The notes beneath the pieces were generated by a model. It did not search any database. It had not been told where the DNA came from and was given only the letters and a program-made list of their open reading frames with translations. DNA of 64,000 nucleotides, from assembly GCF_056712565.1 (NCBI RefSeq), contig NZ_CM160072.1. The stretch is one strand, 5' to 3'. This document shows, one piece after another, positions 11,198 to 57,390 of the stretch. The stretch's first letter is position 1. Each line of letters opens with the position of its first letter. The translations under genes were made by a program, and so were the position numbers.

Positions 11198-11851
11198 TTA
11201 CTTGCGAGTGACAGCCCGGACGATGCGGTCGCCTGCGAACTGAATTAAATAAACCAGAATGACCAGCAATACCAGTACCGTATTCATCACCGTCGCGTTG
11301 TAGCCGATGTAGCCATACTGATAGCCAATCTGACCTAAACCACCGGCACCGACTGCACCACCCATCGCGGAATAACCAACCAGGGTAATCAGGGTGATAG
11401 TTGCCGCATTCACCAGACCCGGCAACGCTTCCGGTAACAGCACTTTACGGACGATCTGCATTGGCGTGGCCCCCATTGCGCGGGAAGCTTCAATTAACCC
11501 GGTTGGGATCTCCAGCAGAGCGTTCTCGACCATACGGGCAATAAACGGTGCTGCACCAACGGTTAACGGAACAATCGCTGCCTGCAATCCAATCGATGTA
11601 CCGACAATAACGCGGGTAAACGGAATCATCCATACCAGCAAGATAATGAACGGGATGGAACGGAAAATGTTCACAATCGCAGAAATGGTACGATACAACT
11701 TCGCGTTAGCAATAATTTGCCCCGGACGCGTGACATAAAGCAGAACGCCAACCGGCAGACCAATCACAAAGCCAAAAAAACCGGATACGAAGGTCATTGC
11801 CAGTGTTTCCCATACGCCACGAACCAGCAGCCATATCATCGGCTCAGACAT
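11198..11851 (-). CDS. metI: D-methionine ABC transporter permease
   Basis: 217-aa polytopic membrane protein; operon position between metN and metQ. Confidence 0.9.
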
Positions 11852-12875
11852 AACCCAGTACCTCTACTTTTACATGGTGTTCCTGAAGCCAGGCAATGGC
11901 GGCTTGCGTATCTTGTTGTGTGCCGTGCATTTCAGTCAGCATAATGCCGAACTTAACGCCACCGGCGTAATCCATCTGCGCGCTAATAATGTTGTTGTTG
12001 ACGTTGAAACGACGCGCGGTTTCAGAAAGCAGTGGGGCATCGACCGATTGACCGGTAAACTCCAGACGCAGCATCGGCACGCAGTCAGTAAATGGCTCCG
12101 CTTGCAGACGTTCCTGGTAATCTTCCGGGATATCCAGATGCAGGGTCGACTGAATAAACTTCTGCGCCAGCGGCGTTTTCGGATGCGAGAACACTTCACT
12201 TACCGTGTCCTGCTCGATCAGTTCGCCATTGCTGATGACCGCCACGCAATCACAAATGCGCTTCACAACGTCCATTTCGTGAGTGATCAACAGAATCGTC
12301 AAACCCAGACGGCGGTTGATGTCTTTCAGCAGTTCGAGAATAGAACGTGTCGTTGCCGGGTCCAGCGCGCTGGTGGCTTCATCACACAGCAATACTTTGG
12401 GATTGCTGGCTAATGCACGGGCAATCGCCACACGTTGTTTCTGCCCACCGGAAAGATTCGACGGGTAGCTATCATGCTTATCGCCAAGACCAACCAATGA
12501 CAGCAATTCCGTCACGCGACGTTTGATCTCGTCTTTCGGTGTGTTGTCCAGCTCCAGCGGCAGAGCCACGTTGCCAAAAACAGTACGCGAAGAGAGCAGG
12601 TTAAAATGCTGGAAAATCATACCAATCTGGCGACGAGCTTTGGTCAACTCGGATTCTGACAGCGTGGTCAGTTCCTGGCCATCGACCAGCACGCTACCCT
12701 CGGTTGGGCGCTCCAGCAGGTTTACACAACGTATAAGCGTACTCTTACCCGCGCCTGAGGCACCGATAACGCCATAAATTTGTCCAGCTGGCACATGCAG
12801 GCTGACGTTGTTCAACGCCTGGATGGTGCGGGTGCCCTGGTGGAACACTTTGGTGATATTCGAAAGTTTTATCAT
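11844..12875 (-). CDS. metN: D-methionine ABC transporter ATP-binding protein
   Basis: 343-aa ORF with Walker A (GASGAGKST), ABC signature (LSGGQKQR) and Walker B motifs. Confidence 0.9.
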
Positions 12876-12957
12876 TGATTATTTATTATCGTCATTAAGT
12901 TAGTCGTGGCATTTCGAATGCCTGGAACGGGCAACGCCGTCAATGAAATGGATGTTA

Positions 12958-12981
12958 AGGCATCCAGACGTCTAAATCAAT
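12958..12981. promoter_or_regulatory. Candidate MetJ operator (met boxes) upstream of metN
   Basis: Perfect AGACGTCT octamer at 12966-12973 flanked by degenerate octamers, ~90 bp upstream of the metN start on the opposite strand. Confidence 0.4.
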
Positions 12982-13062
12982 CAGGTTTATGCGAAGAGCA
13001 CTTTCTTGCAGGTCGAAACATGCGATACTAGCGTCACATGCCTTATTAAGGAGCTATAAAAG

Positions 13063-13635
13063 GTGGCGAAGAGCGTACCCGCAATTTTTCTTGACCGTGA
13101 TGGCACCATTAATGTCGATCACGGTTATGTCCATGAGATCGACAACTTTGAATTTATCGACGGTGTTATTGACGCCATGCGCGAGCTAAAAAAAATGGGC
13201 TTTGCGCTGGTGGTAGTAACCAACCAGTCTGGCATTGCTCGCGGTAAATTTACTGAAGCACAGTTTGAAACGCTGACCGAGTGGATGGACTGGTCGCTGG
13301 CGGACCGCGATGTCGATCTGGATGGTATCTATTATTGCCCGCATCATCCGCAGGGTAGTGTTGAAGAGTTTCGCCAGGTCTGCGACTGCCGCAAACCACA
13401 TCCGGGGATGTTTTTGTCAGCACGCGATTATTTGCATATTGATATGGCCGCTTCTTATATGGTGGGCGATAAATTAGAAGATATGCAGGCAGCGGCTGCG
13501 GCGAGCGTGGGAACAAAAGTGCTGGTGCGTACGGGTAAACCTATTACGCCTGAAGCAGAAAACGCGGCGGATTGGGTGTTAAATAGCCTGGCAGACCTTC
13601 CGCAAGCGATAAAAAAGCAGCAAAAACCGGCGTAA
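13063..13635 (+). CDS. gmhB: D-glycero-beta-D-manno-heptose-1,7-bisphosphate 7-phosphatase
   Basis: 190-aa HAD-family ORF with the DRDGT motif (FLDRDGTIN). Confidence 0.9.
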
Positions 13636-13678
13636 TGATTAAAAGATGAGCGGTTGAAATAAAAATGCATTTTTCCGC

Positions 13679-13706
13679 TTGTCTTCCTGAAACGACTCCC
13701 TATAAT
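13679..13706 (+). promoter_or_regulatory. rRNA operon promoter P1
   Basis: TTGTCT -35 (13679-13684) and TATAAT -10 (13701-13706) at 16-bp spacing, with an AT-rich UP-like region upstream; resembles rrn P1 promoters. Confidence 0.6.
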
Positions 13707-13788
13707 GCGCCTCCATCGACACGGCGGATGTGAATCACTTCACACAAACAGCCGGTTCGGTTGAAGAGAAAAATCCTGAAATTCAGGG

Positions 13789-13816
13789 TTGACTCTGAAA
13801 GAGGAAAGCGTAATAT
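13789..13816 (+). promoter_or_regulatory. rRNA operon promoter P2
   Basis: TTGACT -35 (13789-13794) and TAATAT -10 (13811-13816), ~110 bp downstream of P1 as in rrn operons. Confidence 0.6.
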
Positions 13817-13857
13817 ACGCCACCTCGCGACAGTGAGCTGAAAGCCGCGTCGCAACT

Positions 13858-13870
13858 GCTCTTTAACAAT
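13858..13870 (+). promoter_or_regulatory. rrn boxA antitermination element
   Basis: TGCTCTTTAACAA matches the rrn leader boxA consensus. Confidence 0.7.
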
Positions 13871-14000
13871 TTATCAGACAATCTGTGTGGGCACTCGAAG
13901 ATACGGATTCTTAACGTCGCAAGACGAAAAATGAATACCAAGTCTCAGGAGTGAACACGTAATTCATTACGAAGTTTAATTCTTTGAGCATCAAACTTTT

Positions 14001-15542
<1,542 letters not shown>

Positions 15543-15610
15543 CCTTAAAGAAGCGTACTTTGAAGTGCTCACACAGATTGTCTGATGAAAATGAGCAGTA
15601 AAACCTCTAC

Positions 15611-15687
<77 letters not shown>

Positions 15688-15729
15688 AATTTGCACCGCA
15701 AATTTGAAGAGGTTTTAACTACATGTTAT

Positions 15730-15805
15730 GGGGCTATAGCTCAGCTGGGAGAGCGCCTGCTTTGCACGCAGGAGGTCTGCGGTTCGATCCCGCATAGCTC
15801 CACCA
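15730..15805 (+). tRNA. alaV: tRNA-Ala (TGC anticodon)
   Basis: GGGGCTATAGCTCAGCTGGGAGAGC...CTCCACCA cloverleaf in the 16S-23S spacer. Confidence 0.95.
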
Positions 15806-15979
15806 TCTCTGTAGTGATTAAATAAAAAATACTTCAGAGTGTACCTGCAAAGGTTCACTGCGAAGTTTTGCTCTTTAAAAATCTGGATCAAGCTGAAAAT
15901 TGAAACACTGAACAATGAAAGTTGTTCGTGAGTCTCTCAAATTTTCGCAACTCTGAAGTGAAACATCTTCGGGTTGTGA

Positions 15980-18883
<2,904 letters not shown>

Positions 18884-27374: not shown

Positions 27375-27451
27375 GGAGCGGTAGTTCAGTCGGTTAGAAT
27401 ACCTGCCTGTCACGCAGGGGGTCGCGGGTTCGAGTCCCGTCCGTTCCGCCA
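27375..27451 (+). tRNA. aspV: tRNA-Asp (GTC anticodon); island-associated tRNA locus
   Basis: Exact repeat of the aspU sequence; immediately followed by an AT-rich region and the accessory island. Confidence 0.95.
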
Positions 27452-27779: not shown

Positions 27780-28565
27780 ATGAATTTAAAAAAGGTTTGT
27801 TGTATATGTGTATTATTCTCGCTGCTTGCAGGATGTGCCTCTGAATCTCCTATTGATGAAAAAAAGAAAAAAACTCAAACCACACAAATTTCTATTAATA
27901 AAAACGTTCCCCAGCAACTAACAGACAAAGATTTATATGGTAATGAAACCACACTGGCTGTATCCGAGGAGGATATTCAAGCTGCGCTTGAAGGAGATGA
28001 GTTTCGTGTGCCTCTTAATTCTCCTGTAATACTTGTTCAGTCTGGCAGTCGCGCACCGGAAACCATTATGCAGGAGGAGATGAGAAAATATTATACAGTT
28101 GCCACATTTTCTGGCATTCCTGACAGGAAAAAAACTGTAACCTGTAATAAAGACAAAAACAAAGATGAAAGCCTGGATATTGTAGATGCCGAAAATATGA
28201 ACTGGATGCAGGCATTGCGTTTTGTTGCAGCAAAAGGCCATCAGAAAGCGATTATTGTTTTCCAGGATACGTTGCAGACAGGAAAATATGACTCTGGATT
28301 GAAATCAATAGTTTGGACAGATTATAAAAATCAAAAATTGACTGACACGATGTCACTGCGTTATTTGGTTCGATTCACGTTGGTGGATGTGGCTACAGGT
28401 GAGTGGGCTACCTGGTCGCCTGTGAATTATGAATCGAAAGTGATTTTTCCGCAGATAGGGAATAAAAATTCTGACAGCCTTGATGTGGCAGAACAGCAGA
28501 TTTCACAACTTAAGCAGAAAACGTATGCAGCAGTGGTTAAAGACCTGGTGAATCGATATCAGTAG
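27780..28565 (+). CDS. yafT: Lipoprotein YafT
   Basis: 261-aa ORF with lipobox (LLAGCASE), low GC, in AT-rich DNA next to aspV. Confidence 0.75.
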
Positions 28566-28904: not shown

Positions 28905-29384
28905 TTAGAAAATCCGTTCACTCCAAAGGCTGTATGCACTGGTTCCGGCGACGCTGTGCTCCCAATTGATGCTCTCATAGGTAAATGACACAGACTCTTC
29001 CGCCTGCCCTGGACTGTCGTTAATGGTATGGGGAACGGTAAGGCCGATGTTTGAGAGCCGGGCGTTAGCCAGTTTCAGCTTGTAGTACGGTTCATTAATT
29101 CCAAAGCGGTTGGTGCGGTAGAATACAAAATCACAGGTCAGACATTCATTCTCTGAAATGGCCTTGCCCAGCAGAGGGGAGGATTTGTCCACCGGTTTCG
29201 TGATGGTCAACTCCTGATGGTTGACATTCTGCGCACGGCTCAGACCATGGGACAGTGACGTCACCATGATCTGATCCTGATGTGCAATCTGGGCTTTGTT
29301 ACCGATGGACGGCATTGACGAGCATCCGGATGAAATCAGCCCCTGAAGTTCTCCGTTCAGTGTCAGATAGACGGGATTTGCCAT
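28905..29384 (-). CDS. hcp: Hcp-family T6SS tube protein (second hcp copy)
   Basis: 159-aa product from MANPVYLTLNGELQG... with AAGGAG RBS 8 nt upstream; Hcp-like N-terminus; the ORF-track start at 29405 is an extension. Confidence 0.8.
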   Translation of the reverse strand: MANPVYLTLNGELQGLISSGCSSMPSIGNKAQIAHQDQIMVTSLSHGLSRAQNVNHQELTITKPVDKSSPLLGKAISENECLTCDFVFYRTNRFGINEPYYKLKLANARLSNIGLTVPHTINDSPGQAEESVSFTYESINWEHSVAGTSAYSLWSERIF

Positions 29385-29401
29385 TGTTATTCTCCTTAAT
29401 C

Positions 29402-30760
29402 TCAATGAGTTGGATGGACAGGTTCGGTTCTGTTATCCGTTGCCATATCCTGTCCGGTATTTTTCAGCAGCAGCCAGCGGCTTAACAGCCCGTCCAGCCG
29501 TTCGTTGATCTCTTTTTCCAACGCCTGTGTGTCCTGCTTCTGTGTACGGGTCTCCTGGTACTGCGTCAGCAGGTACTCCAGTGGTGTTTCTTGATTCAGT
29601 AACCGTTCGGCCTGCCAGGTCACCGTTTTGATATACGATAGGGTGAAACCCTGTTTCTCCGTCTCCTTCTTCATCATCAAATCTGCAAAATCCCGCAAAT
29701 TCTGCCGCGCTTGTTGCCAGCCCTTCATCTGCGGACTGGCTTGCGCCCGGTTTCTCAGCGTGTTGCTCCACATCCTGCTGGCTTCCTGCTGTTGCAGGCT
29801 TTCCGGCCAGAGGGTGTCTGCGGTGCGCATCATCTGCATTCCGGTTTCCAGCGGCTGTAGTGGCGGGGCATTCAGAAGCTGTTGCAGGTACTGTTCATAT
29901 TCTTTCAGTACCGGGGATGCCAACCAGACGGTGGCGGCTCCCTGTGTGGTATCCCTGACCTGTGTAAGCTGCTGCTGCATCGGATACGCCTGCCACCACC
30001 AGAGTGCAGATGCGATAACGGCAGTACAGGCGGCACCGGCAACAAAACCTTTTACCGTGTCGCCCTGTTTTGCTTTGTCGGCGTTATCTGCCACACCGCG
30101 CACCCCCACCCGCATTTCCGGCAGGTCGGGTAGGGGGGGCATGGTTTCCGCTGTGGCGGAAGCCGTGCCTTCAGGCGCATAGACCAGCGTTCTGACCATG
30201 GTCTGTGCCGCCGTATCAGTACGGTTTCTGGGCTGCGGCTCAAACCGCTTGCGTGTGTTCTGCACAAAATAAAGCAGATTTTCCACGCGCGGCTGGCGCT
30301 TCAGTTCCACTTGCTGGAGTTTGTCGCAGATAAGCTGCAAAGCCCGTTCCGTGCGGTAGAGCAACGAAAGATCATTTTCGGAAAAGGAAACCTGCTGGCG
30401 CAGGATATTCCCGGTGCGGGTGTTGAACCAGTCCAGCATCTCAGTCCGCGCCGGACCACTCTGCGGCCAGAATTTATCCCATTCGTGGATGATCATCGCA
30501 GCCAGCAGTTCCGCGCCTTCACAGAACCCTGCCAGTCCCTGATTACGTGTACGTGCCAGCGTATAGTAGGTGGCGGTATGCAAATCCACCCCGTTGGCCT
30601 TAAAAATCGACAGCGCCAGCGATTCCACCAGTTTCCAGTTCAGCTCCGGCTGTGACGGGTGGTTAGCTTTGTTAATTTCTTCGCGGATGGCGCTGAACTC
30701 CGGCAGGGCGCGCGGATCGCTGCCGGTAACGATAGTTTGTGTCAGTGCGTAATTGCTCAT
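29402..30760 (-). CDS. ImpA-N-domain T6SS-associated protein (VasL/TssA-like)
   Basis: 452-aa product from MSNYALTQTIVTGSDPRALPEFSAIREEINK (ImpA N-terminal motif), predicted TM segment mid-protein; start inferred at the ATG 10 nt after the tssM stop. Confidence 0.6.
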   Translation of the reverse strand: MSNYALTQTIVTGSDPRALPEFSAIREEINKANHPSQPELNWKLVESLALSIFKANGVDLHTATYYTLARTRNQGLAGFCEGAELLAAMIIHEWDKFWPQSGPARTEMLDWFNTRTGNILRQQVSFSENDLSLLYRTERALQLICDKLQQVELKRQPRVENLLYFVQNTRKRFEPQPRNRTDTAAQTMVRTLVYAPEGTASATAETMPPLPDLPEMRVGVRGVADNADKAKQGDTVKGFVAGAACTAVIASALWWWQAYPMQQQLTQVRDTTQGAATVWLASPVLKEYEQYLQQLLNAPPLQPLETGMQMMRTADTLWPESLQQQEASRMWSNTLRNRAQASPQMKGWQQARQNLRDFADLMMKKETEKQGFTLSYIKTVTWQAERLLNQETPLEYLLTQYQETRTQKQDTQALEKEINERLDGLLSRWLLLKNTGQDMATDNRTEPVHPTH

Positions 30761-48507: not shown

Positions 48508-49212
48508 AAAAATGTTCCCGTTCAGGCCATGAGCACAGCATTTTCGTACTGCATACAAATACCGACAATACCGTTTCAGTGGCAGTTAGATAATGTAACC
48601 TTCCTTCTGTTGTGATCGGTATTCTACTCATGAAATAAAACATTAAAAGAACTATTTATATTTTTGAAAGAGATGTATCCTTCATTATTAATACATAAGA
48701 GTTAAATCAATTTGGTATTTATAGACTTAGTGAATATGATTTTACGGCTAATAAAGTTACATAATGCATTGATTTATATGTGTTTATTAAGTTGATTAAT
48801 AAGTTTTATGTATGGTTTTATAAATAAATTAATTAATTGCTAGAAATACATCATAAGAAATTCCTTTAAGGAATATCTTAATTGCGTGCCGGAACGATTG
48901 TGAAGTAAGTGTTGTAATGATTGATTTTTGAAGAAATTGTAGGTTTTTATGGGGGTAAGGATACGTTATGGATAATTCTACTGTTGATGTTGATATATTT
49001 TTAGCTTATGTAATCGTGTTCTGAAATTGACTAAAAATATATTTAAACACCATAAAAGAGTTTTTCGGTAGGTGCTAATTACGTGTGCCTGTAACTCGAA
49101 TAAAGAAAAGGGTGTGGTTCCTGATGTGAGCCGCATCACACTCTAACCTGTCGGGGATTAACGACGGGTTGTTCGTAAAACAGCAGTTGATAATTTCACA
49201 AGGAGTTCATAA
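48508..49212. promoter_or_regulatory. AT-rich divergent control region between tssB (minus) and hcp (plus)
   Basis: ~700 bp of strongly AT-rich non-coding DNA between the two divergent T6SS transcription units. Confidence 0.5.
49125..49140. promoter_or_regulatory. Candidate CRP-type binding site upstream of hcp
   Basis: TGTGA-GCCGCA-TCACA: both pentameric half-sites with 6-bp spacer, centred ~80 bp upstream of the hcp ATG. Confidence 0.3.
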
Positions 49213-49731
49213 ATGCCAACCCCATGTTACATTTCAATTACAGGTCAGACCCAGGGGAACATCACTGCCGGTGCTTTCACCGCAGATTCTGTCGGCAATA
49301 TCTACGTGCAGGGACACGAAGATGAAATGCTGGTGCAGGAGTTTCTGCATAACGTTACTGTTCCAACCGATCCGCAGTCTGGTCAGCCTTCCGGGCAGCG
49401 TGCTCACAAACCGTTCATTTTCACCGTGGCGCTGAACAAAGCCGTTCCGCTGCTGTACAACGCGCTGGCCTCCGGTGAAATGCTGCCGAAAGTGGAGCTG
49501 CACTGGTGGCGTACCTCTGTTGAAGGCAAGCAGGAGCACTACTTCACCACACGTCTTACTGACGCGACGATTGTGGACATGAACCTGCATATGCCGCACT
49601 GCCAGGACCCTGCACAGCGTGAGTTTACGCAATTGCTCGCAGTATCACTGGCCTACCGTAAGGTTGAGTGGGAGCACATCAAATCCGGTACTTCTGGTGC
49701 CGATGACTGGCGTGCACCGCTGGAAGCATAA
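49213..49731 (+). CDS. hcp: T6SS tube protein Hcp (TssD)
   Basis: 172-aa ORF, Hcp-like, preceded by AAGGAG RBS. Confidence 0.9.
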   Translation: MPTPCYISITGQTQGNITAGAFTADSVGNIYVQGHEDEMLVQEFLHNVTVPTDPQSGQPSGQRAHKPFIFTVALNKAVPLLYNALASGEMLPKVELHWWRTSVEGKQEHYFTTRLTDATIVDMNLHMPHCQDPAQREFTQLLAVSLAYRKVEWEHIKSGTSGADDWRAPLEA

Positions 49732-49740
49732 ATCTGAGTC

Positions 49741-49777
49741 AACAACATCCTGCCTCCGTGCAGGATGTTGTTTTTGT
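49741..49777 (+). terminator. Intrinsic terminator/attenuator between hcp and vgrG
   Basis: AACAACATCCTGC-CTCCGT-GCAGGATGTTGTT perfect 13-bp stem followed by TTTTGT. Confidence 0.7.
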
Positions 49778-49951
49778 ACGTGTAAAAAATGAGTGTCAGT
49801 AAGGAGTTACGCTTTCATGAGGGAGATGGTGGATGCCGGAAACCCGGGCGGTAGCGTACCTGAAAATGTAAAGATGAGTGTAACGCTGCACTGGCACCCT
49901 TTGCTGCATGGTGGGAATCATTTGGTCCGTGAATGAATCAGGGAGGTCATT

Positions 49952-51934
49952 ATGTCCTTAAAAGGTCTTCGCTTTACGCTGGAGGTTGACGGCCAGGAGC
50001 CGGACACCTTTGCAGTGGTGAATTTCCGGTTAATCCAGAACCAGTCTTATCCGTTTGTGATGAGTGTGGATGTCGCCAGCGATTCTTTTATGCAGACGGC
50101 GGAGATGCTGCTGGAGAAGAACGCAACGCTGACTATCTGGCAGGGTGTCATCCCGCTGCGTTATGTCACCGGCGTGGTGGCGGGCTTTGGCATGCAGGAG
50201 AACAACGGCTGGCAGATGCGTTATCACCTGCGTATTGAGCCGCCGTTATGGCGGTGCGGGCTGCGGCGGAACTTCCGTATCTTCCAGCAGCAGGATATCC
50301 GGACGATATCGGCCACATTACTGAACGAGAACGGCGTCACAGAGTGGACGCCGCTGTTTTATGAGGACCATCCGGCGCGGGAGTTCTGTGTGCAGTACGG
50401 GGAGTCGGACCTGGCGTTTCTGGCGCGGCTGTGGGCGGAGGAGGGGATTTTCTTCTTTGAGCGGTTTGCGGCGGACAGTCCGGAGCAGAAGCTGACGCTG
50501 TGCGACGATGTGGCGGGGCTGTCACAGGCGGGGGAGCTTCCGTTTAACCCGGACACATCGGCAGGAGCGGAGACGGAGTGTGTCAGTATGTTCCGTTATG
50601 AGGCGCATGTCCGCCCGTCATCGGTGCAGAGCCAGGATTACACGTTTAAGGTGCCGGACTGGCCGGGGATGTATGAGCAGCAGGGTGAGAGCCTGAACGG
50701 ACAGCTTGAACAGTATGAAATATTTGATTATCCGGGAAGGTACAAGGATGAACAGCACGGCAAGGATTTCACGCTGTACCGGATGGAGAGCCTGCGCAGT
50801 GATGCGGAAAAGGCCACAGGGCAGAGTAATTCGCCGAAGCTGTGGCCGGGGACGTGGTTTACGCTGACGGGGCATCCGCAGAAGATGCTGAACCGTGAAT
50901 GGCAGGTGGTACAGAGCATTCTGTCAGGAGACCAGCCGCAGGCGCTTCACGGCAGCCAGGGGAGAGGAACCACGCTGGGAAATCAGTTAGAGGTGATACC
51001 GGCGGACCGGACGTGGCGTCCACGGCTGCAAAGCAAACCGAAGGTGGACGGGCCACAGAGCGCCATTGTCACCGGGCCTGCGGGAGAGGAAATCTTCTGT
51101 GATGAACATGGCCGGGTACGGGTGAAGTTTCACTGGGACCGTTATCACGGGATGACGGAGGAGAGTTCGTGCTGGGTGCGTGTGTCGCAGGCGTGGGCGG
51201 GGCCGGGATTTGGTAATCTGGCGATACCGCGGGTGGGCCAGGAGGTGATTGTTGATTTTCTGAACGGGGACCCGGACCAGCCGCTGGTCATGGGCCGGAC
51301 GTACCATGAGGACAACCGTTCGCCGGGGAGCCTGCCGGGGACGAAGACGCAGATGACGATACGGTCGAAGACCTATAAAGGAAGCGGCTTTAATGAACTG
51401 CGGTTTGAAGACGCCACGGGCGGTGAACAGGTCTATATCCACGCGCAGAAGAACATGGATACGGAGGTGCTGAATAATCGGACGACGGATGTGAAGGCTG
51501 ACCACACGGAGACCATTGGTAACGACCAGAAGATAACGGTGGGGTTGGGCCAGACGGTGAATGTGGGGAGCAAAAAGGAAGGTGGTCATGACCAGAAAGT
51601 GACGGTAGCGAACGATCAGCATCTCACGATAAAAAATGACCGGCACAAGGTTGTAAATAACAACCAGACAAGCAAGGTGACGGGAACTGATACCGAAGAA
51701 GTCGTCAAAAAACAGAGTATTAAAATAGGTGATAATTACGAACTGAAAGTTGAGCATGGTACAAATATCATATCTGGGGACAGTATTGAGCTAATTTGTG
51801 GGCAGGGAGAGAGCGGGACTTGTTCCATAAAACTGGAGAAAACAGGAAAGATAATAATACGGGGGACGGAGTTTCTATTTGAGGCTACCGGTCCTGTAGA
51901 TATTAAAGGAAAAGATATTCATCTGAACGGATAG
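49952..51934 (+). CDS. vgrG: T6SS spike protein VgrG (TssI)
   Basis: 660-aa ORF with gp27/gp5-like core; no long C-terminal effector extension; GGGAGG RBS. Confidence 0.9.
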   Translation: MSLKGLRFTLEVDGQEPDTFAVVNFRLIQNQSYPFVMSVDVASDSFMQTAEMLLEKNATLTIWQGVIPLRYVTGVVAGFGMQENNGWQMRYHLRIEPPLWRCGLRRNFRIFQQQDIRTISATLLNENGVTEWTPLFYEDHPAREFCVQYGESDLAFLARLWAEEGIFFFERFAADSPEQKLTLCDDVAGLSQAGELPFNPDTSAGAETECVSMFRYEAHVRPSSVQSQDYTFKVPDWPGMYEQQGESLNGQLEQYEIFDYPGRYKDEQHGKDFTLYRMESLRSDAEKATGQSNSPKLWPGTWFTLTGHPQKMLNREWQVVQSILSGDQPQALHGSQGRGTTLGNQLEVIPADRTWRPRLQSKPKVDGPQSAIVTGPAGEEIFCDEHGRVRVKFHWDRYHGMTEESSCWVRVSQAWAGPGFGNLAIPRVGQEVIVDFLNGDPDQPLVMGRTYHEDNRSPGSLPGTKTQMTIRSKTYKGSGFNELRFEDATGGEQVYIHAQKNMDTEVLNNRTTDVKADHTETIGNDQKITVGLGQTVNVGSKKEGGHDQKVTVANDQHLTIKNDRHKVVNNNQTSKVTGTDTEEVVKKQSIKIGDNYELKVEHGTNIISGDSIELICGQGESGTCSIKLEKTGKIIIRGTEFLFEATGPVDIKGKDIHLNG

Positions 51935-52040
51935 TGCAGGATATAAAACATGGTGATTGTATTTGCTTTATACGCCTGTGAATCACCATTTGTGATTGTT
52001 TAAATTAATCATAGCATGACTTATTCAGGAATCAATAAGC

Positions 52041-53087
52041 ATGATAGAAATGAAAAATAACACGCCATTTCCTTTGTTGTCATTTGAAAAATATGGTCGT
52101 TATGGTCTTTTGTTTGATGTTATTGCTATTAAAATGTCATTGCGAATTAAAAATGGATTTTATGCTGATCTTGCTGAGTTTCAAAAAGAATTGTCCATGT
52201 CTGATGAATACTATGGGGAGTCTGAAACAAGTAGTCTAAAATCTGAAACAGACTTAGTTCTTTGTAAAAGAAATACAGATATTCACGTGACAGGTAGTGC
52301 TCATGCCCCTTCAGGGGATAAGTCTCAGTGGAAGGCTTGTGTGAGGGTTAATAGTTTTTCTAAAGAACTGAGTTTATCTGGTGTCCGCTACTTACAATAT
52401 GAGCGAAATCGTTGGCAGATGAGCTTACCAGATAAAATTATTAATGTTCCTCTACGCTATGAGCTTGCTTACGGTGGTATTTGGCAACCAGATGGTATGG
52501 AGAAATTGGTTTTTTCAGCAAACCCTGTAGGTTGTGGATATTATCCTGATATTTCTCAACTTAATACAAGTTGTCAATATAAACTCCCACAAATAACCAG
52601 CTCTGCTTTGTCAGAAAACGCTACCATTTTTAATGGGGAATCTGACTTTTTTCAAGGTGTTGGCCCTGTATCTCGATGGTGGAAAAGTCGCCTCCAGTAT
52701 GCAGGAACCTACAATGAAGTATGGCGTGAAAAGCGCTATCCCTATTTGCCGGATGATTTTGATGAGCGGTTCTACAATAGTGCTCATCCGGATATGATAT
52801 ACACGGGGTTTCTCTCTGGCGATGAAAACATCTCTCTTGAAGGTTTTTTTAAATTTGAACAGGTTGTTAAGACAAAATTGCCAGGTATACGACCTGTACT
52901 TATATTAAAAACCAAGCATAATACATCACATATGTTCTTACCTGTTGCGGATACAATGGTTATCGATTTAAGTCGACAGGAAATATACCTTACCTGGAGA
53001 TTAACAATACCTGATTTTTTTGGAATGAAAGAAGGAGTGCTGAGTTGTATTATTCCTGAATGTATAGGGAAAAAATATTATGGGTAA
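52041..53087 (+). CDS. Putative DUF2169-family T6SS adaptor protein
   Basis: 348-aa low-GC ORF directly between vgrG and a DUF4150/PAAR-like effector, the canonical adaptor position; assignment by context and size. Confidence 0.55.
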   Translation: MIEMKNNTPFPLLSFEKYGRYGLLFDVIAIKMSLRIKNGFYADLAEFQKELSMSDEYYGESETSSLKSETDLVLCKRNTDIHVTGSAHAPSGDKSQWKACVRVNSFSKELSLSGVRYLQYERNRWQMSLPDKIINVPLRYELAYGGIWQPDGMEKLVFSANPVGCGYYPDISQLNTSCQYKLPQITSSALSENATIFNGESDFFQGVGPVSRWWKSRLQYAGTYNEVWREKRYPYLPDDFDERFYNSAHPDMIYTGFLSGDENISLEGFFKFEQVVKTKLPGIRPVLILKTKHNTSHMFLPVADTMVIDLSRQEIYLTWRLTIPDFFGMKEGVLSCIIPECIGKKYYG

Positions 53088-54519
53088 CTATCATATCGGG
53101 GATGGTGAATGTAGATTTAGAGTCGTGTGTTCTTCACCAGATGTATGTGAAGTAGGAGGTTACAAGGTTCCTTTTGACAGTTACCAGACTTTAGATAGTG
53201 AAAGACAGTACAGTTCAACGGTATGGGCGCGTGGATGCAGAGCTTTAAATGTTGGTTCAGTGATTGCTGGAACTCAAAGTAATGCCGGTAAAGGTGTCAT
53301 ATCCGGTACATCTCAAGGAACGGGTGACTGTGTTATTTTAACGGGAAGTCCGACTGTAACAATAGAAGGGAAACCTGTTGCTTATCATGGTTCAGTTGTT
53401 GGGATTAATAACCACAACTGCCTTGGTAAATTGTATACCAAAATAAAATCACCAATGATTTCTGTCATTGATAGAACTTTTAATTATGAAAGGACTGCTG
53501 AAGTAATACACGATTTACTGCTTCTGAAGGATCTCCTCTCTGTTGGTAATATTTTTGACGGAGATATTTCACCTGAGGTTAAAAATGATTTATTTCAAAT
53601 AAAAGATCCTGACCAATCATGGGGGGAGTTTTTTTCAATAAAGAATATCAGAGAATCTCTCAGGAATGGTATTGAAGGAGATAAATCTCAGATCAGAGAA
53701 TGGTTTGGAGAGAACACACTTACTCAAATGGGGAATGGAGCAATCACCACTTTACATGGTGTGGCGGATTTAGCCTTAGTTACATTCGATGCTCTGTTAG
53801 ATACGGCAACGGCAACGGTTGCTTGCCCGATAGGCGAAGATGGGTTATGTGAACAGGCAAATATAAATTTAAATGAAAAAGAACAGGCTTTATTTAATAT
53901 TAGTAATTCATTGATAAATGGGCAAGCATGGGATGCACTTAAAAAAATGATAATGGATACAAATAATGGTGATCAGATTGCTCTGGTGCATTTTGCCAGC
54001 TTTTTATGGGGCTTTATGATACCCGCAAAAATACCAGAAGAAAATATCTCTGGGAAAGTATTTGTAGAGCCAGTAGTTTTAGAAGGTGGTGCTGGTGGCA
54101 ATTGGACAGTATTTGATGAGGTTTTAGATTCAAATGTAATAAAGCAATTGACTTTAACAGGCTGTGGAGCGGCCTGTGGGGAAATGTTGCTTAGGGATAG
54201 GTATATTTTTGTCACGCAAAATGTAATTGGAACAGAATTAACATCTATGACGTCGCTGGCAAACAAGCTTAATAAATTTGATGTCGGCTGGGAAGGGAAT
54301 GCAGTGAGCGAATCTAGTTTATATGCCCTCAGTAATACTGGTTCATGGGGAGCAATGATGTGGGATTCTGGAAGTAAAGTAGGGCATTGGGTACTTGTTA
54401 AGGGTGTTGATGATGCTGGGAATGTGATAATATATGATCCATATCAAGGGAGTCGATATCTGATGACTGAACAGGAATTTAAGGAGGTATGGAATGGGCA
54501 TAGTGTTTACAAACCATAA
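53080..54519 (+). CDS. DUF4150/PAAR-like T6SS effector with C-terminal papain-like cysteine-peptidase toxin domain
   Basis: 479-aa ORF; N-terminus carries DUF4150 motifs (SPDVCEVGG, SGTSQGTGD, GSPTVTIEGKPVAYHGS...NNHN); C-terminal ~130 aa has a Cys/His/Asp arrangement (GCGAACGEM ... GHWVLVKG ... IYDP); start overlaps the upstream gene by 8 nt. Confidence 0.75.
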   Translation: MGNYHIGDGECRFRVVCSSPDVCEVGGYKVPFDSYQTLDSERQYSSTVWARGCRALNVGSVIAGTQSNAGKGVISGTSQGTGDCVILTGSPTVTIEGKPVAYHGSVVGINNHNCLGKLYTKIKSPMISVIDRTFNYERTAEVIHDLLLLKDLLSVGNIFDGDISPEVKNDLFQIKDPDQSWGEFFSIKNIRESLRNGIEGDKSQIREWFGENTLTQMGNGAITTLHGVADLALVTFDALLDTATATVACPIGEDGLCEQANINLNEKEQALFNISNSLINGQAWDALKKMIMDTNNGDQIALVHFASFLWGFMIPAKIPEENISGKVFVEPVVLEGGAGGNWTVFDEVLDSNVIKQLTLTGCGAACGEMLLRDRYIFVTQNVIGTELTSMTSLANKLNKFDVGWEGNAVSESSLYALSNTGSWGAMMWDSGSKVGHWVLVKGVDDAGNVIIYDPYQGSRYLMTEQEFKEVWNGHSVYKP

Positions 54520-54784
54520 TATTGATTTGTTATCGGTTGAATTTGATGAGATTACAAAAAATTGTAATTACACTTTTAGTGTAGATGGAGAGACGGCTAT
54601 CTTTACTGCTAGAATATCAATAATAAGAAATATAAAGGGAATTAAATATAGCGAAGAACTTGATAAATTTATAATGTCAATAATGCCATTGCAGCCTAAA
54701 GTATCAAAAATTTTGGGAGGTGTTACTTGGGATTGTATTTGTGGTAAGGAAGTTGGATTTCCTGTGAGATTAATTGGTAAGTGA
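54494..54784 (+). CDS. Putative cognate immunity protein
   Basis: 96-aa ORF overlapping the effector 3' end by 26 nt, same strand, low GC; no signal peptide. Confidence 0.5.
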   Translation: MGIVFTNHNIDLLSVEFDEITKNCNYTFSVDGETAIFTARISIIRNIKGIKYSEELDKFIMSIMPLQPKVSKILGGVTWDCICGKEVGFPVRLIGK

Positions 54785-55041
54785 AGGGTGGTGAGGTATT
54801 TCTATATTTTTTTCGTGAAAGTCTTTAAAACTGAAATTATCTTGTTGGGAGCCCAAGGTGAGATCATAAAACGTATTATTTTATAAATATTGTTATGCAG
54901 GGAAAGGTCAAGTAATGCTGCTTTTTTGTACTAAATAATTCGCATTTTATGTTCAATAATTGAGGTGTTCCTTATTACCTAAAGCTGTTTTTCATTGCTT
55001 ATACATGATCAAATACTCATTGCCTAATTAAGGGGGACAAA

Positions 55042-55920
55042 ATGGAACTTAAAAAATTGATGGAACATATTTCTATTATTCCCGATTACAGGCAAGCCTG
55101 GAAAGTGGAACATAAATTGCCAGATATTCTATCTGTTAACTATTTGCGCCGTTATTTCTGGTGCATAATGCTGGGAAGATATAGAGGATTTGGGGAAACA
55201 CATCTCGATTTTTTGAAGTGATATGGTGATTTTGAAAATGGTATTCCTGTTCACGATATCATTGCCAGAGTTGTATCCTGTATCAGTCCTGCAAAATTTC
55301 ATGAGTGCTTTATTAACTGGATGCGTGACTGCCATTCCTCAGATGATAAAGATGTCATTGCAATTGATGGAAAAACGCTTCGGCACTCTTATGACAAGAG
55401 TCGCCGCAAGGGAGCGATTTATGTCATTAAAATCCGTCTTCATATTATTTGCGATGTCCCTGATGAACTTATTGATTTCACGTTTGAATGGAAAGAGCTG
55501 AAGAAATTATGCATGGCAGTCTCCTTTCGTTCAATAATAACAGAACAAAAGAAAGAGCCAGAAATGACGGACAGATATTATAGCATTTCTGCTGATTTAA
55601 CCGCAGAGAAGTTCGCCACAGCGAACCGAAATCACTGGTACGTGGAGAATAAGCTGCACTGGCATCTGGACGTGGTAATGAATAAAGACGACTGCAAAAT
55701 AAGAAGAGGAAATGCAGCAGAATTATTTTCAGGGATACGGAAGATCGCTATTAATATTTTAACGAAAGATAAGATACTCAAGGCAGGGGCAAGATGTAAG
55801 ATGTGAAAAGCAGCTGCGGACAGAGACTACCTCGCGTCAGTCCTTGCGGGGGCGGGCTTTCGTATTCTTGCTCTGCAAGGGATGATAAAAAGTGCAACTT
55901 TATTCCACGCAGCTATTTAG
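55042..55920 (+). mobile_element. Decayed ISAs1-family (H-repeat-associated) transposase remnant
   Basis: Fragments in several frames match an H-repeat/ISAs1 transposase: [26 protein letters not shown]..., [12 protein letters not shown]...[40 protein letters not shown], then C-terminal [21 protein letters not shown]...[31 protein letters not shown]; frameshifts plus an internal deletion of ~150 codons. Confidence 0.7.
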
Positions 55921-56034
55921 ACAGCGTACAGTAAACAAACGAAAGTTGTTATTTCAATGGTCAGGGCAAGAGCATGAAGTGTTTACTACACACTATGCTC
56001 TTGTCCTGGAGTCAGGTCTTGTTTGGAGGGATAA

Positions 56035-56538
56035 ATGGTAGATATTGTCGAGGCCGATAAAACGGATATTTATTTCATTCAGGAGAGTGTTTATGGCAAA
56101 ATCGGGTTGCCAGCTTTTGGTAATACAATAGGACCATCCGCACAGCAAGTTGTTAAAAAGGTATTCGCTGTCGTTAAAGAACGAGATAAGACACATGCAA
56201 AACAGAGATTATTGTTGGAATATAATGGTAACAAACTCTGGATGAATGCTATTGATGGCAGTGAAGCTATCCTACCAACAGAATTTTCTAAGCGATACGA
56301 ACTTTCATTATTCAATACTACTAATTTTGGAGAAGATCCTTTTCCTGATGTTAATTTATATAATAATATGAAATCAAGTTTTTTTGTAAGGTTTGGTGGA
56401 ACATCCCATCCCGAGGCTTGGGCTATTTATAATGCAAGTACGAAAGAGGTTAAATATATAGAAACTGCAAGAGAAATTGATAAAATATTCAGTGATTTTA
56501 ACTTGAGTGGTACATTGCCAATTCACATTGGTCAATGA
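56035..56538 (+). CDS. Hypothetical protein (orphan, low GC)
   Basis: 167-aa ORF with GGAGGG RBS, no signal peptide, AT-rich codon usage; no motif recognised. Confidence 0.5.
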   Translation: MVDIVEADKTDIYFIQESVYGKIGLPAFGNTIGPSAQQVVKKVFAVVKERDKTHAKQRLLLEYNGNKLWMNAIDGSEAILPTEFSKRYELSLFNTTNFGEDPFPDVNLYNNMKSSFFVRFGGTSHPEAWAIYNASTKEVKYIETAREIDKIFSDFNLSGTLPIHIGQ

Positions 56539-56607
56539 TTTTTTAAATTGTGTGATTAAATAATTGAACATTAATGATGATTTATAGCATCATTATTATT
56601 CTATAAC

Positions 56608-57120
56608 ATGAATAAACGGATTGAATGTGTTATGTTAAAAATGAGTTTATACGTAATAATATTGTTATTTTCCCTTCAGTTTAGTGCAGCCATTACTGGC
56701 AAGGAAAGTGAGGTTGTTTCACCATTATTAATGGATGTTAATCCTTCACTAACAATGGAAAATATTTCTGAATTATCCACATCATCGGAACCATCGCAAC
56801 AGGGGGTATTTCCTGTAATATGTACTCGACTTCATCCTGGCTCCGTAATGAAACGTCAGTTATTAACCGGCTGGGGGCCTGTTTTTATAATTGGTGATGA
56901 TCCTTTTTCTCTGCGCTGGATGAGTGAACATCTGGAGATCCTTAAATCGCTAAATGCCCTTGGTTTGGTTGTTAATGTTGAATCAGTAGAACGAATGGAG
57001 GTATTACAGCAGCGGGCTGATGGGTTATTGTTATTGCCAGTTATCTGCGATAATTTTGTGCAAGCTCTGCAATTAAATGCTTATCCGGTATTAATCACAG
57101 AGATGGAAATATCACAATGA
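56608..57120 (+). CDS. Hypothetical secreted protein (orphan, low GC)
   Basis: 170-aa ORF with predicted N-terminal signal peptide (MSLYVIILLFSLQFSAA); no motif recognised. Confidence 0.5.
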   Translation: MNKRIECVMLKMSLYVIILLFSLQFSAAITGKESEVVSPLLMDVNPSLTMENISELSTSSEPSQQGVFPVICTRLHPGSVMKRQLLTGWGPVFIIGDDPFSLRWMSEHLEILKSLNALGLVVNVESVERMEVLQQRADGLLLLPVICDNFVQALQLNAYPVLITEMEISQ

Positions 57121-57145
57121 TTAATAACATAATTACTGCTAATAA

Positions 57146-57390
57146 TATGGTGATTTTGAAAATGGTAATCCTGTTCACGACACCATAATCAGAGTTATGT
57201 CCTGTATCCGTTCAGTAAAATTTCACGAATGCTTTATTAACCGGATGCGTGAATGTCATTCTTCAGACGACATAGACGTCATTGCGATTGATGGAAAAGC
57301 ACTTCCACACTCCTGTGATAAAAGTCGTCGCAGGAGAGCGGGCTTTCGTAGTCTTCCCCGACTCTCCCCGGCCCTAAACACAACCCCCAC
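57146..57390 (+). mobile_element. Second ISAs1-family transposase fragment (yafF-like)
   Basis: Encodes [66 protein letters not shown], a diverged direct repeat (~85% identity by eye) of 55213-55410; abuts the yafV 3' end. Confidence 0.6.

Follow-up and report, generated by a model that had tools for sequence, protein, structure and literature searches.

The Cpe1–Cpi1 effector–immunity cassette downstream of vgrG in an Escherichia coli type VI secretion island

Cpe1–Cpi1 of E. coli ATCC 11775 is an effector–immunity pair encoded directly after a type VI secretion system (T6SS) vgrG, and crystal structures, cleavage substrates and competition data have been reported for it (Song et al., PLoS Biol 2025, PMC12136450; PDB 9L5U). 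In that work, Cpe1 cleaves GyrB and ParE at a Gly-Gly motif of their ATPase domains, is active in T6SS competition and loses the toxicity of its C-terminal domain upon the C362A substitution, while Cpi1 blocks it by binding to an exosite. Tsap of the ExPEC strain RS218 (Lu et al. 2023, PMC10434152) is the same protein as Cpe1. StbD-CT/StbI of Citrobacter rodentium and related CdiA-CT C39 peptidase toxins (PDB 8SSK, 8SSM; preprint 10.64898/2026.05.07.723447) combine a homologous entry domain, a Gly-Gly linker and a C39 peptidase. GyrB and ParE are targets of StbD-CT as they are of Cpe1, whereas the carriers differ, being CdiA-type (type V) for StbD-CT and a PAAR-like domain on the T6SS spike for Cpe1. 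[quoted passage not shown]

Two further systems are close in gene arrangement. Class I Tvp systems, which correspond to DUF2169 synteny type B, share the same minimal gene order, for example in VgrG2/DUF2169/DUF4150-Tde2 of A. tumefaciens (Bondage 2016 as cited in PMC13373197; PMC11883445); compared with this example, Cpe1 has a C39 protease toxin domain plus an added CDI-type entry domain. The Tle1/Tli1/Tla1 cassette (RefSeq annotation, strains B1172 and 23CRST027) is found in other E. coli at this very site, behind the same hcp-vgrG core and likewise with a VgrG C-terminus of its own, but it has a DUF4123 (Tla1) adaptor, a phospholipase effector and DUF3304 immunity proteins, and no PAAR-like fusion.

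The locus described here lies in a T6SS island between tRNA-Asp (aspV) and yafV, within a 64-kb window, by which we mean the whole stretch of DNA that was analysed. Taking our explanation as a whole, it is almost certainly the Cpe1–Cpi1 cassette of this island. No observation contradicts this identification. It is a known system, from a family whose distribution a published phylogeny already describes, and adds no new biology of its own; the Cpe1–Cpi1 publications do not treat the DUF2169 gene, the drop in GC content or the cassette boundaries, and otherwise nothing of substance differs. The genes of this locus described below are on the + strand. The spike gene vgrG (49952-51934) encodes 660 aa, is named Vgr family protein in RefSeq and was assigned to VgrG (TssI) by TIGR03361 (E 1e-180; 601.7 bits, curated cut-off 186) and TIGR01646 (E 5e-128; 428.2 bits, cut-off 121.8). 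Its end at 51934 is followed by a 106-bp AT-rich gap and then by three open reading frames of 348, 479 and 96 aa, which overlap by 8 nt and 26 nt, in agreement with the earlier note, where three co-directional overlapping genes had been described from the letters alone. The run of vgrG, DUF2169 gene, DUF4150-effector and immunity gene contains no extra open reading frames and is the simplest DUF2169 type of cassette. When 48500-57400 was searched with promoter and terminator consensus sequences, 33 promoter-like sites (21.6 expected) and 10 terminator-like sites (6 expected) came up, with no site prominent at the gene boundaries; in the AT-rich DNA of this locus, such counts were not informative.

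The first gene of the cassette (52041-53087) encodes the 348-aa DUF2169 (TvpA/Aec14) accessory chaperone, WP_000571853.1, whose RefSeq name is DUF2169 family type VI secretion system accessory protein and which one source calls Aec14. It matched PF09937 (DUF2169) in Pfam with E 7.8e-72 (query aa 27-320, model 7-294 of 294), so that the adaptor proposed in the earlier note is confirmed. The protein has a single domain, and its gene adjoins vgrG and the DUF4150 gene with no DUF6484, DUF3540 or pentapeptide partners, as in class I Tvp systems; these are the features that define synteny type B and Tvp class I in PMC11883445 and PMC13373197, where the DUF2169 family is described as a chaperone for DUF4150/PIPY tips. 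The term DUF2169 has zero occurrences in the text of Song et al., and a chaperone requirement for Cpe1 therefore rests on homologues.

The second gene, cpe1 (= tsap; 53080-54519), encodes the 479-aa protein WP_000528853.1, named cysteine protease effector protein Cpe1 in RefSeq; this accession also appears in the annotation of a genome whose DNA is 100% identical to the locus. This protein is the proven T6SS effector Cpe1, or Tsap of ExPEC RS218 (PMC12136450, PMC10434152), and the Tsap peptide WDALKKMIMDT is found in it. Its N-terminus matched Tox-PAAR-like PF13665 (formerly DUF4150) in Pfam with E 1.4e-11 (aa 15-115, model 2-107 of 108; 53122-53424), which, together with the identity to Cpe1/Tsap, establishes the effector with a PAAR-like N-terminus that had been suggested; this domain would cap VgrG. 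The residues K29-V30-P31-F32 (KVPF) occupy the same columns as VVPY in two other E. coli DUF4150 proteins; thus, the V-P-(Y/F) core of the P(I/V)P(Y/F) motif is kept, with its first Pro replaced by Lys. At the other end, the toxin domain Cpe1tox (aa 337-479; 54088-54519) is a papain-like/C39 cysteine peptidase that matched Peptidase_C39 over aa 352-474 (Pfam, E 1.2e-5) and is 100% identical to chain A of PDB 9L5U, the Cpe1tox–Cpi1 complex of E. coli ATCC 11775. A Cys-His-Asp triad of C362, H436 and D453 is present, in which H436 and D453, as read off the sequence, are likely the catalytic His and Asp. The catalytic C362 and the exosite residues L387, M390, A408, M426, W428 and V434 are all present when compared with PMC12136450.

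Between these ends, a helical domain (about aa 189-313; 53644-54018) matched PDB 8SSK in a phmmer search with E 1.3e-25 (query aa 121-337). The match pairs aa 189-337, which cover the helical domain and the linker as far as the Gly-Gly, with residues 27-175 of 8SSK, and a comparison of aa 189-477 with StbD-CT-type PDB entries gave E 8e-82. The C249/C257 pair of Cpe1 aligns with the disulfide pair of StbD (CPIGEDGLC vs CATG-DSYC). Judged by sequence similarity, the middle domain is a homologue of the domain with which the CdiA-like toxin StbD-CT enters the cytoplasm in a YajC-dependent manner. In the linker ahead of the peptidase domain, VVLEGG/AGG aligns with the PKGG cleavage site of StbD-CT, and by this analogy Gly336-Gly337 (54085-54090) is the predicted auto-processing site of Cpe1.

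The toxin gene is followed by an overlapping gene, cpi1 (54494-54784; WP_000513317.1), whose 96-aa product is 100% identical over its whole length to chain C of PDB 9L5U, labelled Cpi1, and is called Cysteine protease immunity protein 1 in one source; the immunity function assigned to it beforehand is thereby settled. Residues I47, M61, M64 and K72 of Cpi1 are present, and none of the functional residues given by Song et al. is missing; Cpi1 is distantly related to CdiI of PDB 8SSM (E 6e-9). None of the models in NCBIfam release 20 matched the DUF2169 protein, Cpe1 or Cpi1. In sum, the three genes after vgrG form a cargo cassette in which all three functional assignments of the earlier note hold, while the toxin domain, the entry domain and the membership of the vgrG 3' end in the exchanged unit were not in it.

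The base composition changes sharply from the T6SS core to the cassette, as had been claimed. GC content and GC3 are 0.591 and 0.727 in aa 1-450 of vgrG, 0.435 and 0.468 in aa 521-660, 0.371 and 0.281 in the DUF2169 gene, 0.390 and 0.290 in cpe1, and 0.306 and 0.227 in cpi1, so that GC falls from 0.59 to 0.31-0.39; GC3 is 0.60-0.73 in the neighbouring T6SS core genes as compared to 0.23-0.29 in the three cassette genes. In 500-nt windows within 51600-54500, the mean GC is 0.378, against 0.526 (sd 0.051) in the remainder of the 64-kb window, a z of about -2.9. The drop is thus real, but its proposed extent of 51935-54784 was too narrow, since GC begins to fall within the last part of vgrG, around 51500-51600, and the low-GC tract persists to about 57200, far beyond 54784.

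Comparison with other E. coli strains gave the limits of the exchanged unit. Homology to strains with other cargo ends at window positions 51615-51641, within vgrG, and resumes at 54898 (L003) and 54923 (L002) in two loci with Tle1 or M35 cargo. The exchanged unit therefore begins in vgrG at codon ~555 and ends about 115-140 bp past cpi1, at a right-hand limit of 54898-54923. Segment 51620-52040 is present in 300 genomes, and 299 genomes hold at least 80% of the cassette. By homology break, GC3 and co-occurrence, the 3' end of vgrG, some 105 codons long (about aa 556-660; 51616-51934), belongs to the exchanged cassette, and DUF2169 and the PAAR-like tip presumably dock on this variable VgrG C-terminus. 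The low-GC flank to the right (54924-57340, +) lies outside the cassette and is common to strains with different cargo, with 97-99% identity; 540 genomes hold it at a coverage of at least 80%, and roughly 540-576 genomes have both flanks. It contains an ISAs1 pseudogene (about 55042-55806), a 167-aa hypothetical gene (56035-56538), a gene for a PFL_4695-family ICE protein (56632-57120) and an ISAs1 fragment (about 57146-57340). The 167-aa reading frame, for which Pfam gave no match up to E 10, was ruled out as a cassette member because it is also kept in strains with other cargo.

The cassette DNA matched 335 E. coli genomes and is 99-100% identical in 330 of them, among which are ATCC 11775, UTI89, S88, 536 and LF82; identity is 100% in many genomes, with about one mismatch in ATCC 11775, and recent RefSeq annotation of the matching genomes uses the gene names cpe1 and cpi1. 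For strain ZJ3920, indels shift the alignment over the first 50 kb, and the base-by-base comparison is limited to the last 14.5 kb, with 22 mismatches. Other E. coli carry Tle1, M35-peptidase, and DUF6484-type or other DUF2169/DUF4150 cassettes at the same site, between flanks that are 94-99% identical. Since different cargo is found at this locus in other E. coli, cassette replacement is confirmed and, together with the low GC content, the proposal of separate acquisition and effector swapping at the vgrG tip is upheld.

A second level of exchange may be present within the cassette. Strain ET350 has the same scaffold of DUF2169, PAAR-like and entry domains with an unannotated toxin (L007, aa ~342-480) and a different downstream gene, which may be the immunity gene for this toxin; Pfam, NCBIfam and PDB sequence searches with the toxin and its neighbours gave no match. 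The toxin–immunity part of the cassette is also found alone at another locus: some 30-35 genomes, of which the listed ones are mostly STEC O145, have only a dead cpe1 stub and an intact cpi1 behind a truncated vgrG at the yncG-pptA locus, and this cpi1 may be an orphan immunity gene that protects from E. coli armed with Cpe1. We give even chances to a nested exchange, in which the whole cassette moves with the vgrG end, a second joint lies at the cpe1 linker that begins near aa 314, just upstream of the Gly-Gly, and cpi1 occurs as an orphan. Such a two-level exchange is not described in the Cpe1 papers.

Other explanations of the cassette were weighed against this evidence. The original reading of Tsap was that of a bacteriocin-like membrane-disrupting effector, which kills by an amphipathic helix and not by proteolysis; Lu et al. 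2023 (PMC10434152) described its C-terminus as "characterized by bacteriocins" and derived membrane-active peptides from WDALKKMIMDT, and the Pfam C39 family is otherwise familiar from bacteriocin-processing ABC transporters. However, the membrane-active peptides are engineered cationic variants and not the native sequence (PMC10434152), and the native stretch (aa ~284-294) is part of the entry-domain homologue, outside the toxin domain. GyrB and ParE have been mapped as substrates, and the loss of toxicity in C362A (PMC12136450) already largely refutes a membrane mechanism, whose probability we regard as close to nil. The deletion of tsap in RS218 lowered antiphagocytic activity, adhesion and invasion (PMC10434152), and the cassette is concentrated in ExPEC, APEC and AIEC strains, e.g., UTI89, S88, 536, LF82 and APEC O1/O2/O18, as would be expected if it were mainly an anti-host (anti-eukaryotic) virulence module with secondary antibacterial activity. 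This is hardly probable, because GyrB and ParE, the mapped targets, are ATPase subunits of bacterial type II topoisomerases (PMC12136450), a dedicated immunity gene overlaps the toxin gene and the entry-domain homologue uses a bacterial inner-membrane protein (preprint 10.64898/2026.05.07.723447); phylogroup B2 ancestry may suffice for the strain association.

The low GC content might also be a local feature of a vertically inherited locus, for example through selection for AT-rich, H-NS-silenced DNA, with no foreign origin or swapping. The conserved flank at 54924-57200 has low GC as well and yet is not exchanged, and Song et al. needed an hns deletion for T6SS up-regulation (PMC12136450). 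Against this, the GC3 of the cassette is far outside host codon usage, the site is filled in other strains by unrelated cassettes (Tle1, M35 peptidase, DUF6484 type) between flanks of 94-99% identity, and the toxin–immunity part stands alone at a different locus, which makes purely vertical inheritance extremely unlikely.

For the exchanged Cpe1–Cpi1 cassette, we propose the following mechanism. By analogy with homologues, the DUF2169 protein would load the PAAR-like N-terminal domain of Cpe1 onto the cassette-specific VgrG C-terminus, and the loaded spike would be fired by the T6SS into a neighbouring Gram-negative cell, as demonstrated for Cpe1 in ATCC 11775 and RS218. As in StbD-CT, the helical entry domain probably reaches the cytosol via the inner-membrane protein YajC, and the peptidase is probably self-released by a cut after Gly336-Gly337 under reducing conditions. 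The C39/papain-like peptidase (C362/H436/D453) would then cut GyrB and ParE at the Gly-Gly motif of their ATPase domains and halt the control of DNA supercoiling and chromosome segregation, both established experimentally for Cpe1. The producer would be protected by Cpi1, which in the published work fills the hydrophobic substrate-binding exosite and not the active site. Together with the last ~105 codons of vgrG, the cassette is a low-GC foreign module exchanged among strains via recombination in the conserved flanks.

Co-inheritance of the cassette with one particular VgrG C-terminus gives precise boundaries for the engineering of chimeric spikes. If the nested exchange is true, the CDI-type entry domain would be a platform that several T6SS toxins can reuse for their delivery. 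The ET350 scaffold with another toxin and the orphan cpi1 in STEC O145 bear on which gut E. coli are immune to which.

We found that vgrG (49952-51934), which lies after hcp (49213-49731), is followed by a 106-bp AT-rich gap and then by a DUF2169 gene (52041-53087, 348 aa), cpe1 (53080-54519, 479 aa) and cpi1 (54494-54784, 96 aa), all on the plus strand. The overlaps are 8 nt between the DUF2169 gene and cpe1 and 26 nt between cpe1 and cpi1, so that the ORF map agrees exactly with the three co-directional overlapping genes that the earlier note had placed at 51935-54784, from the first base past the vgrG stop codon to the end of the 96-aa gene. The window spans ldcC through rrnH and dnaQ, and the T6SS island is placed between tRNA-Asp (27375-27451), right after which it begins, and yafV (57391-58170). 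A hypothetical 261-aa ORF (27780-28565, local GC 0.32-0.40) stands after the tRNA, and a second hcp-family gene (28905-29405, minus strand) stands at the left end of the cluster. The very AT-rich intergenic region (48500-49250, GC 0.29-0.32) between the divergent tssB (minus strand) and hcp (plus strand) is probably the cluster's regulatory region; the equivalent region in strain 23CRST027 carries an IS903B element.

The identity of the last two products was settled by PDB sequence search. Over residues 337-479 the 479-aa protein has 100% identity to chain A of 9L5U, the complex of the Cpe1 peptidase domain with Cpi1 from E. coli ATCC 11775, and the 96-aa protein matches chain C, deposited as Cpi1, with 100% identity from end to end; by sequence the two are Cpe1 and Cpi1, which bears out the immunity role proposed for the small gene. 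Pfam recovered the expected PAAR-like N-terminus (Tox-PAAR-like, PF13665, formerly DUF4150; E 1.4e-11, aa 15-115) together with a Peptidase_C39 match (aa 352-474, E 1.2e-5) that had gone unnoticed. The P(I/V)P(Y/F) motif reads KVPF in Cpe1, its core kept and its first Pro not, and VVPY in the same columns of two other E. coli DUF4150 proteins. All three cassette proteins are present in public collections by exact look-up, where the DUF2169 protein is named Aec14 and the third is called "Cysteine protease immunity protein 1" by one source; recent RefSeq labels are WP_000528853.1 for cpe1 and WP_000513317.1 for cpi1.

This very protein, from ATCC 11775, was studied by Song et al. (PLoS Biol 2025, PMC12136450). 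In the passages of that paper that bear on it, the C-terminal domain is shown to be a papain-like cysteine protease whose toxicity is lost in C362A, MG1655 is killed T6SS-dependently by a delta-hns donor, cleavage falls in the GyrB G101-G102 and ParE G97-G98 motifs, and the Cpe1tox-Cpi1 structure, solved at 1.87 Å, has Cpi1 blocking a hydrophobic exosite (L387, M390, A408, M426, W428, V434) and not the active site. Our residue check covered the positions numbered in those passages: C362 and all six exosite residues are in the window's Cpe1 translation, and I47, M61, M64 and K72 are in its Cpi1. A Cys-His-Asp triad is described there with His and Asp unnumbered, and the likely His and Asp of Cpe1, H436 and D453, lie in the expected motifs, GHWVLV and IIYDP. 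The same gene was earlier called tsap in ExPEC RS218 (Lu et al. 2023, PMC10434152), and the "original" peptide of that work, WDALKKMIMDT, is found in the window's Cpe1.

The 348-aa protein belongs to the DUF2169 adaptor family, as the earlier note had supposed, and its Pfam match (E 7.8e-72) takes in nearly all of the model. Sachar et al. (JBC 2025, PMC11883445) have shown that DUF2169 is found strictly together with VgrG and DUF4150 ("PIPY") domains and that DUF4150/PIPY tips need it to make a functional spike. In Monlezun et al. (EMBO J 2026, PMC13373197) the family is given the new name TvpA and divided into three classes, with Bondage et al. 2016 as the model cited for class I. Because the DUF2169 protein here is single-domain and its partners DUF6484, DUF3540 and pentapeptide are absent from the cassette, we assign the cassette to synteny type B, class I. 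Since DUF2169 is nowhere mentioned by Song et al. (PMC12136450), its role in loading Cpe1 is one that we infer, on good grounds, rather than a demonstrated one.

When aa 121-337 of Cpe1 alone were searched against the PDB, they matched StbD-CT, the C-terminal toxin region of the CdiA-like StbD of Citrobacter rodentium (8SSK; E 1.3e-25 over Cpe1 aa 189-337), and the match takes in a Cys pair (C249/C257 of Cpe1) and, at the domain end, a Gly-Gly site (PKGG / LEGG). According to a preprint of Hayes and Goulding (10.64898/2026.05.07.723447), the counterpart region in StbD-CT serves as a cytoplasm-entry domain dependent on YajC, and the peptidase frees itself by cutting after Gly-Gly under reducing conditions; a disulfide with a second Cys, four residues past the catalytic one, is hypothesised to restrain the enzyme under oxidising conditions. 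The preprint states that entry domain and processing site are common to Cpe1, and calls Cpe1 the first likely T6SS effector to use a CDI entry route. The equivalents in Cpe1 are G336-G337 for the Gly-Gly site and C362/C366 for the catalytic and the second Cys. By analogy with StbD-CT, Cpe1 would enter through the YajC-dependent domain and would release itself at G336-G337 under reducing conditions.

The sharp fall in GC from the T6SS core to the cargo genes, noted at first by eye, proved real and large. In 500-nt windows the cassette has a mean GC of 0.378, as against 0.526 (sd 0.051) in the rest of the window. The drop starts within vgrG, from GC 0.591 (GC3 0.727) at aa 1-450 to 0.435 (0.468) at aa 521-660, and continues through the DUF2169 gene (0.371, 0.281), cpe1 (0.390, 0.290) and cpi1 (0.306, 0.227); GC3 is mostly ~0.59-0.64 in the neighbouring T6SS core and housekeeping genes, with lower values in tssE (0.43) and tssB (0.49). 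Low GC extends to ~57200, and the tract between 54924 and ~57200, conserved whatever the cargo, lies outside the cassette. The flank at 54924-57340 appears to be what is left of an older mobile element on the right-hand side of the island: it contains a frameshifted pseudogene of an ISAs1 transposase and a second ISAs1 fragment, and between them a 167-aa hypothetical ORF without a Pfam match and a PFL_4695 ICE-family gene. The ISAs1 pieces at 55221-55416 and 57145-57340 appear to be direct repeats, because each matches the other's counterpart in strain B1172 at ~82% identity.

Effector swapping at the vgrG tip was confirmed by comparison with three E. coli genomes whose hcp-vgrG core is 94-97% identical to the window's, in which other cargo lies between common flanks. 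After vgrG, B1172 carries DUF4123, three DUF3304 genes and a Tle1 phospholipase; 23CRST027 an M35 metallopeptidase cassette, then a vgrG fragment with Tla1/Tli1a/Tle1; and ETEC6335 DUF6484, DUF2169, a hypothetical gene and DUF4150, then a second PAAR-like effector. Homology ends at 51615-51641 (vgrG codon ~555) in all three and returns at 54898-54923, ~115-140 bp past cpi1 and just ahead of the ISAs1 pseudogene, in the two whose loci extend far enough, so the exchanged unit measures ~3.3 kb and takes in the final ~105 codons of vgrG. That the VgrG C-terminus specifies cargo is an established idea, and the inheritance of the VgrG end together with its cargo fits it. The more complex DUF2169 cassette of ETEC6335 (11728-17963 of its locus) answers to synteny type A, or Tvp class II, so that accessory systems of class I in some strains and of class II in others occupy one and the same E. 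coli T6SS locus. In B1172, 47 bp (16826-16872 of its locus) between the Tle1 gene and the ISAs1 pseudogene resemble the yafV 3' end (window 57403-57449, 89% identity); absent from the matching place in the window, they may be the scar of an earlier insertion or rearrangement.

Among 5,426 complete E. coli genomes, DNA of 51935-54784 was found in 335, always on the chromosome and in 330 at no less than 99% identity; carriers include ATCC 11775, UTI89, S88, 536, LF82, NU14 and many APEC strains. The cassette is covered to at least 80% in 299 genomes, and the vgrG tail segment 51620-52040 in 300, all at 99% identity or higher. With the same 80% threshold, 576 genomes have the hcp-vgrG core and 540 the right flank; therefore about half of the locus-bearing genomes carry Cpe1 and the rest other cargo.

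Judging by related loci, exchange may also occur within the effector. Strain ET350 (NZ_CP100966.1, 6146-7989) has a DUF2169 partner and an effector 88% identical, counting gaps in the aligned linker, to Cpe1 aa 1-331, which keeps the PAAR-like and entry domains and ends in ~140 aa unrelated to Cpe1; the next gene, at the immunity position, encodes 134 aa and is different from cpi1. Because Pfam, NCBIfam and PDB sequence searches gave no match for this C-terminal domain, the domain may be a toxin, so far uncharacterised, carried by the Cpe1 delivery scaffold. Conversely, ~30-35 complete genomes, mostly STEC O145 among the matches listed, match from 54018 onward only. In O145:H28 RM12761 (NZ_CP007133.1, 5224-7767), a 111-aa 3' stub of cpe1 and an intact cpi1, its protein identical to the window's, lie at the yncG-pptA locus after a PAAR gene and a truncated vgrG, and this cpi1 has the look of an orphan immunity gene that was kept. 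In both cases the breakpoint lies at Cpe1 aa ~313-318, equivalent to the point where the flexible linker begins in the structure of StbD-CT; such breakpoints and remnants are typical of polymorphic toxins and orphan immunity genes.

Taken together, the observation of the earlier note is confirmed and its interpretation is supported. The Cpe1-Cpi1 system is already known in mechanistic and structural detail, and the points that go beyond this are modest: a probable need for DUF2169 in loading Cpe1, a putative entry by way of YajC, the exact joints of the exchange and the apparent orphan cpi1.
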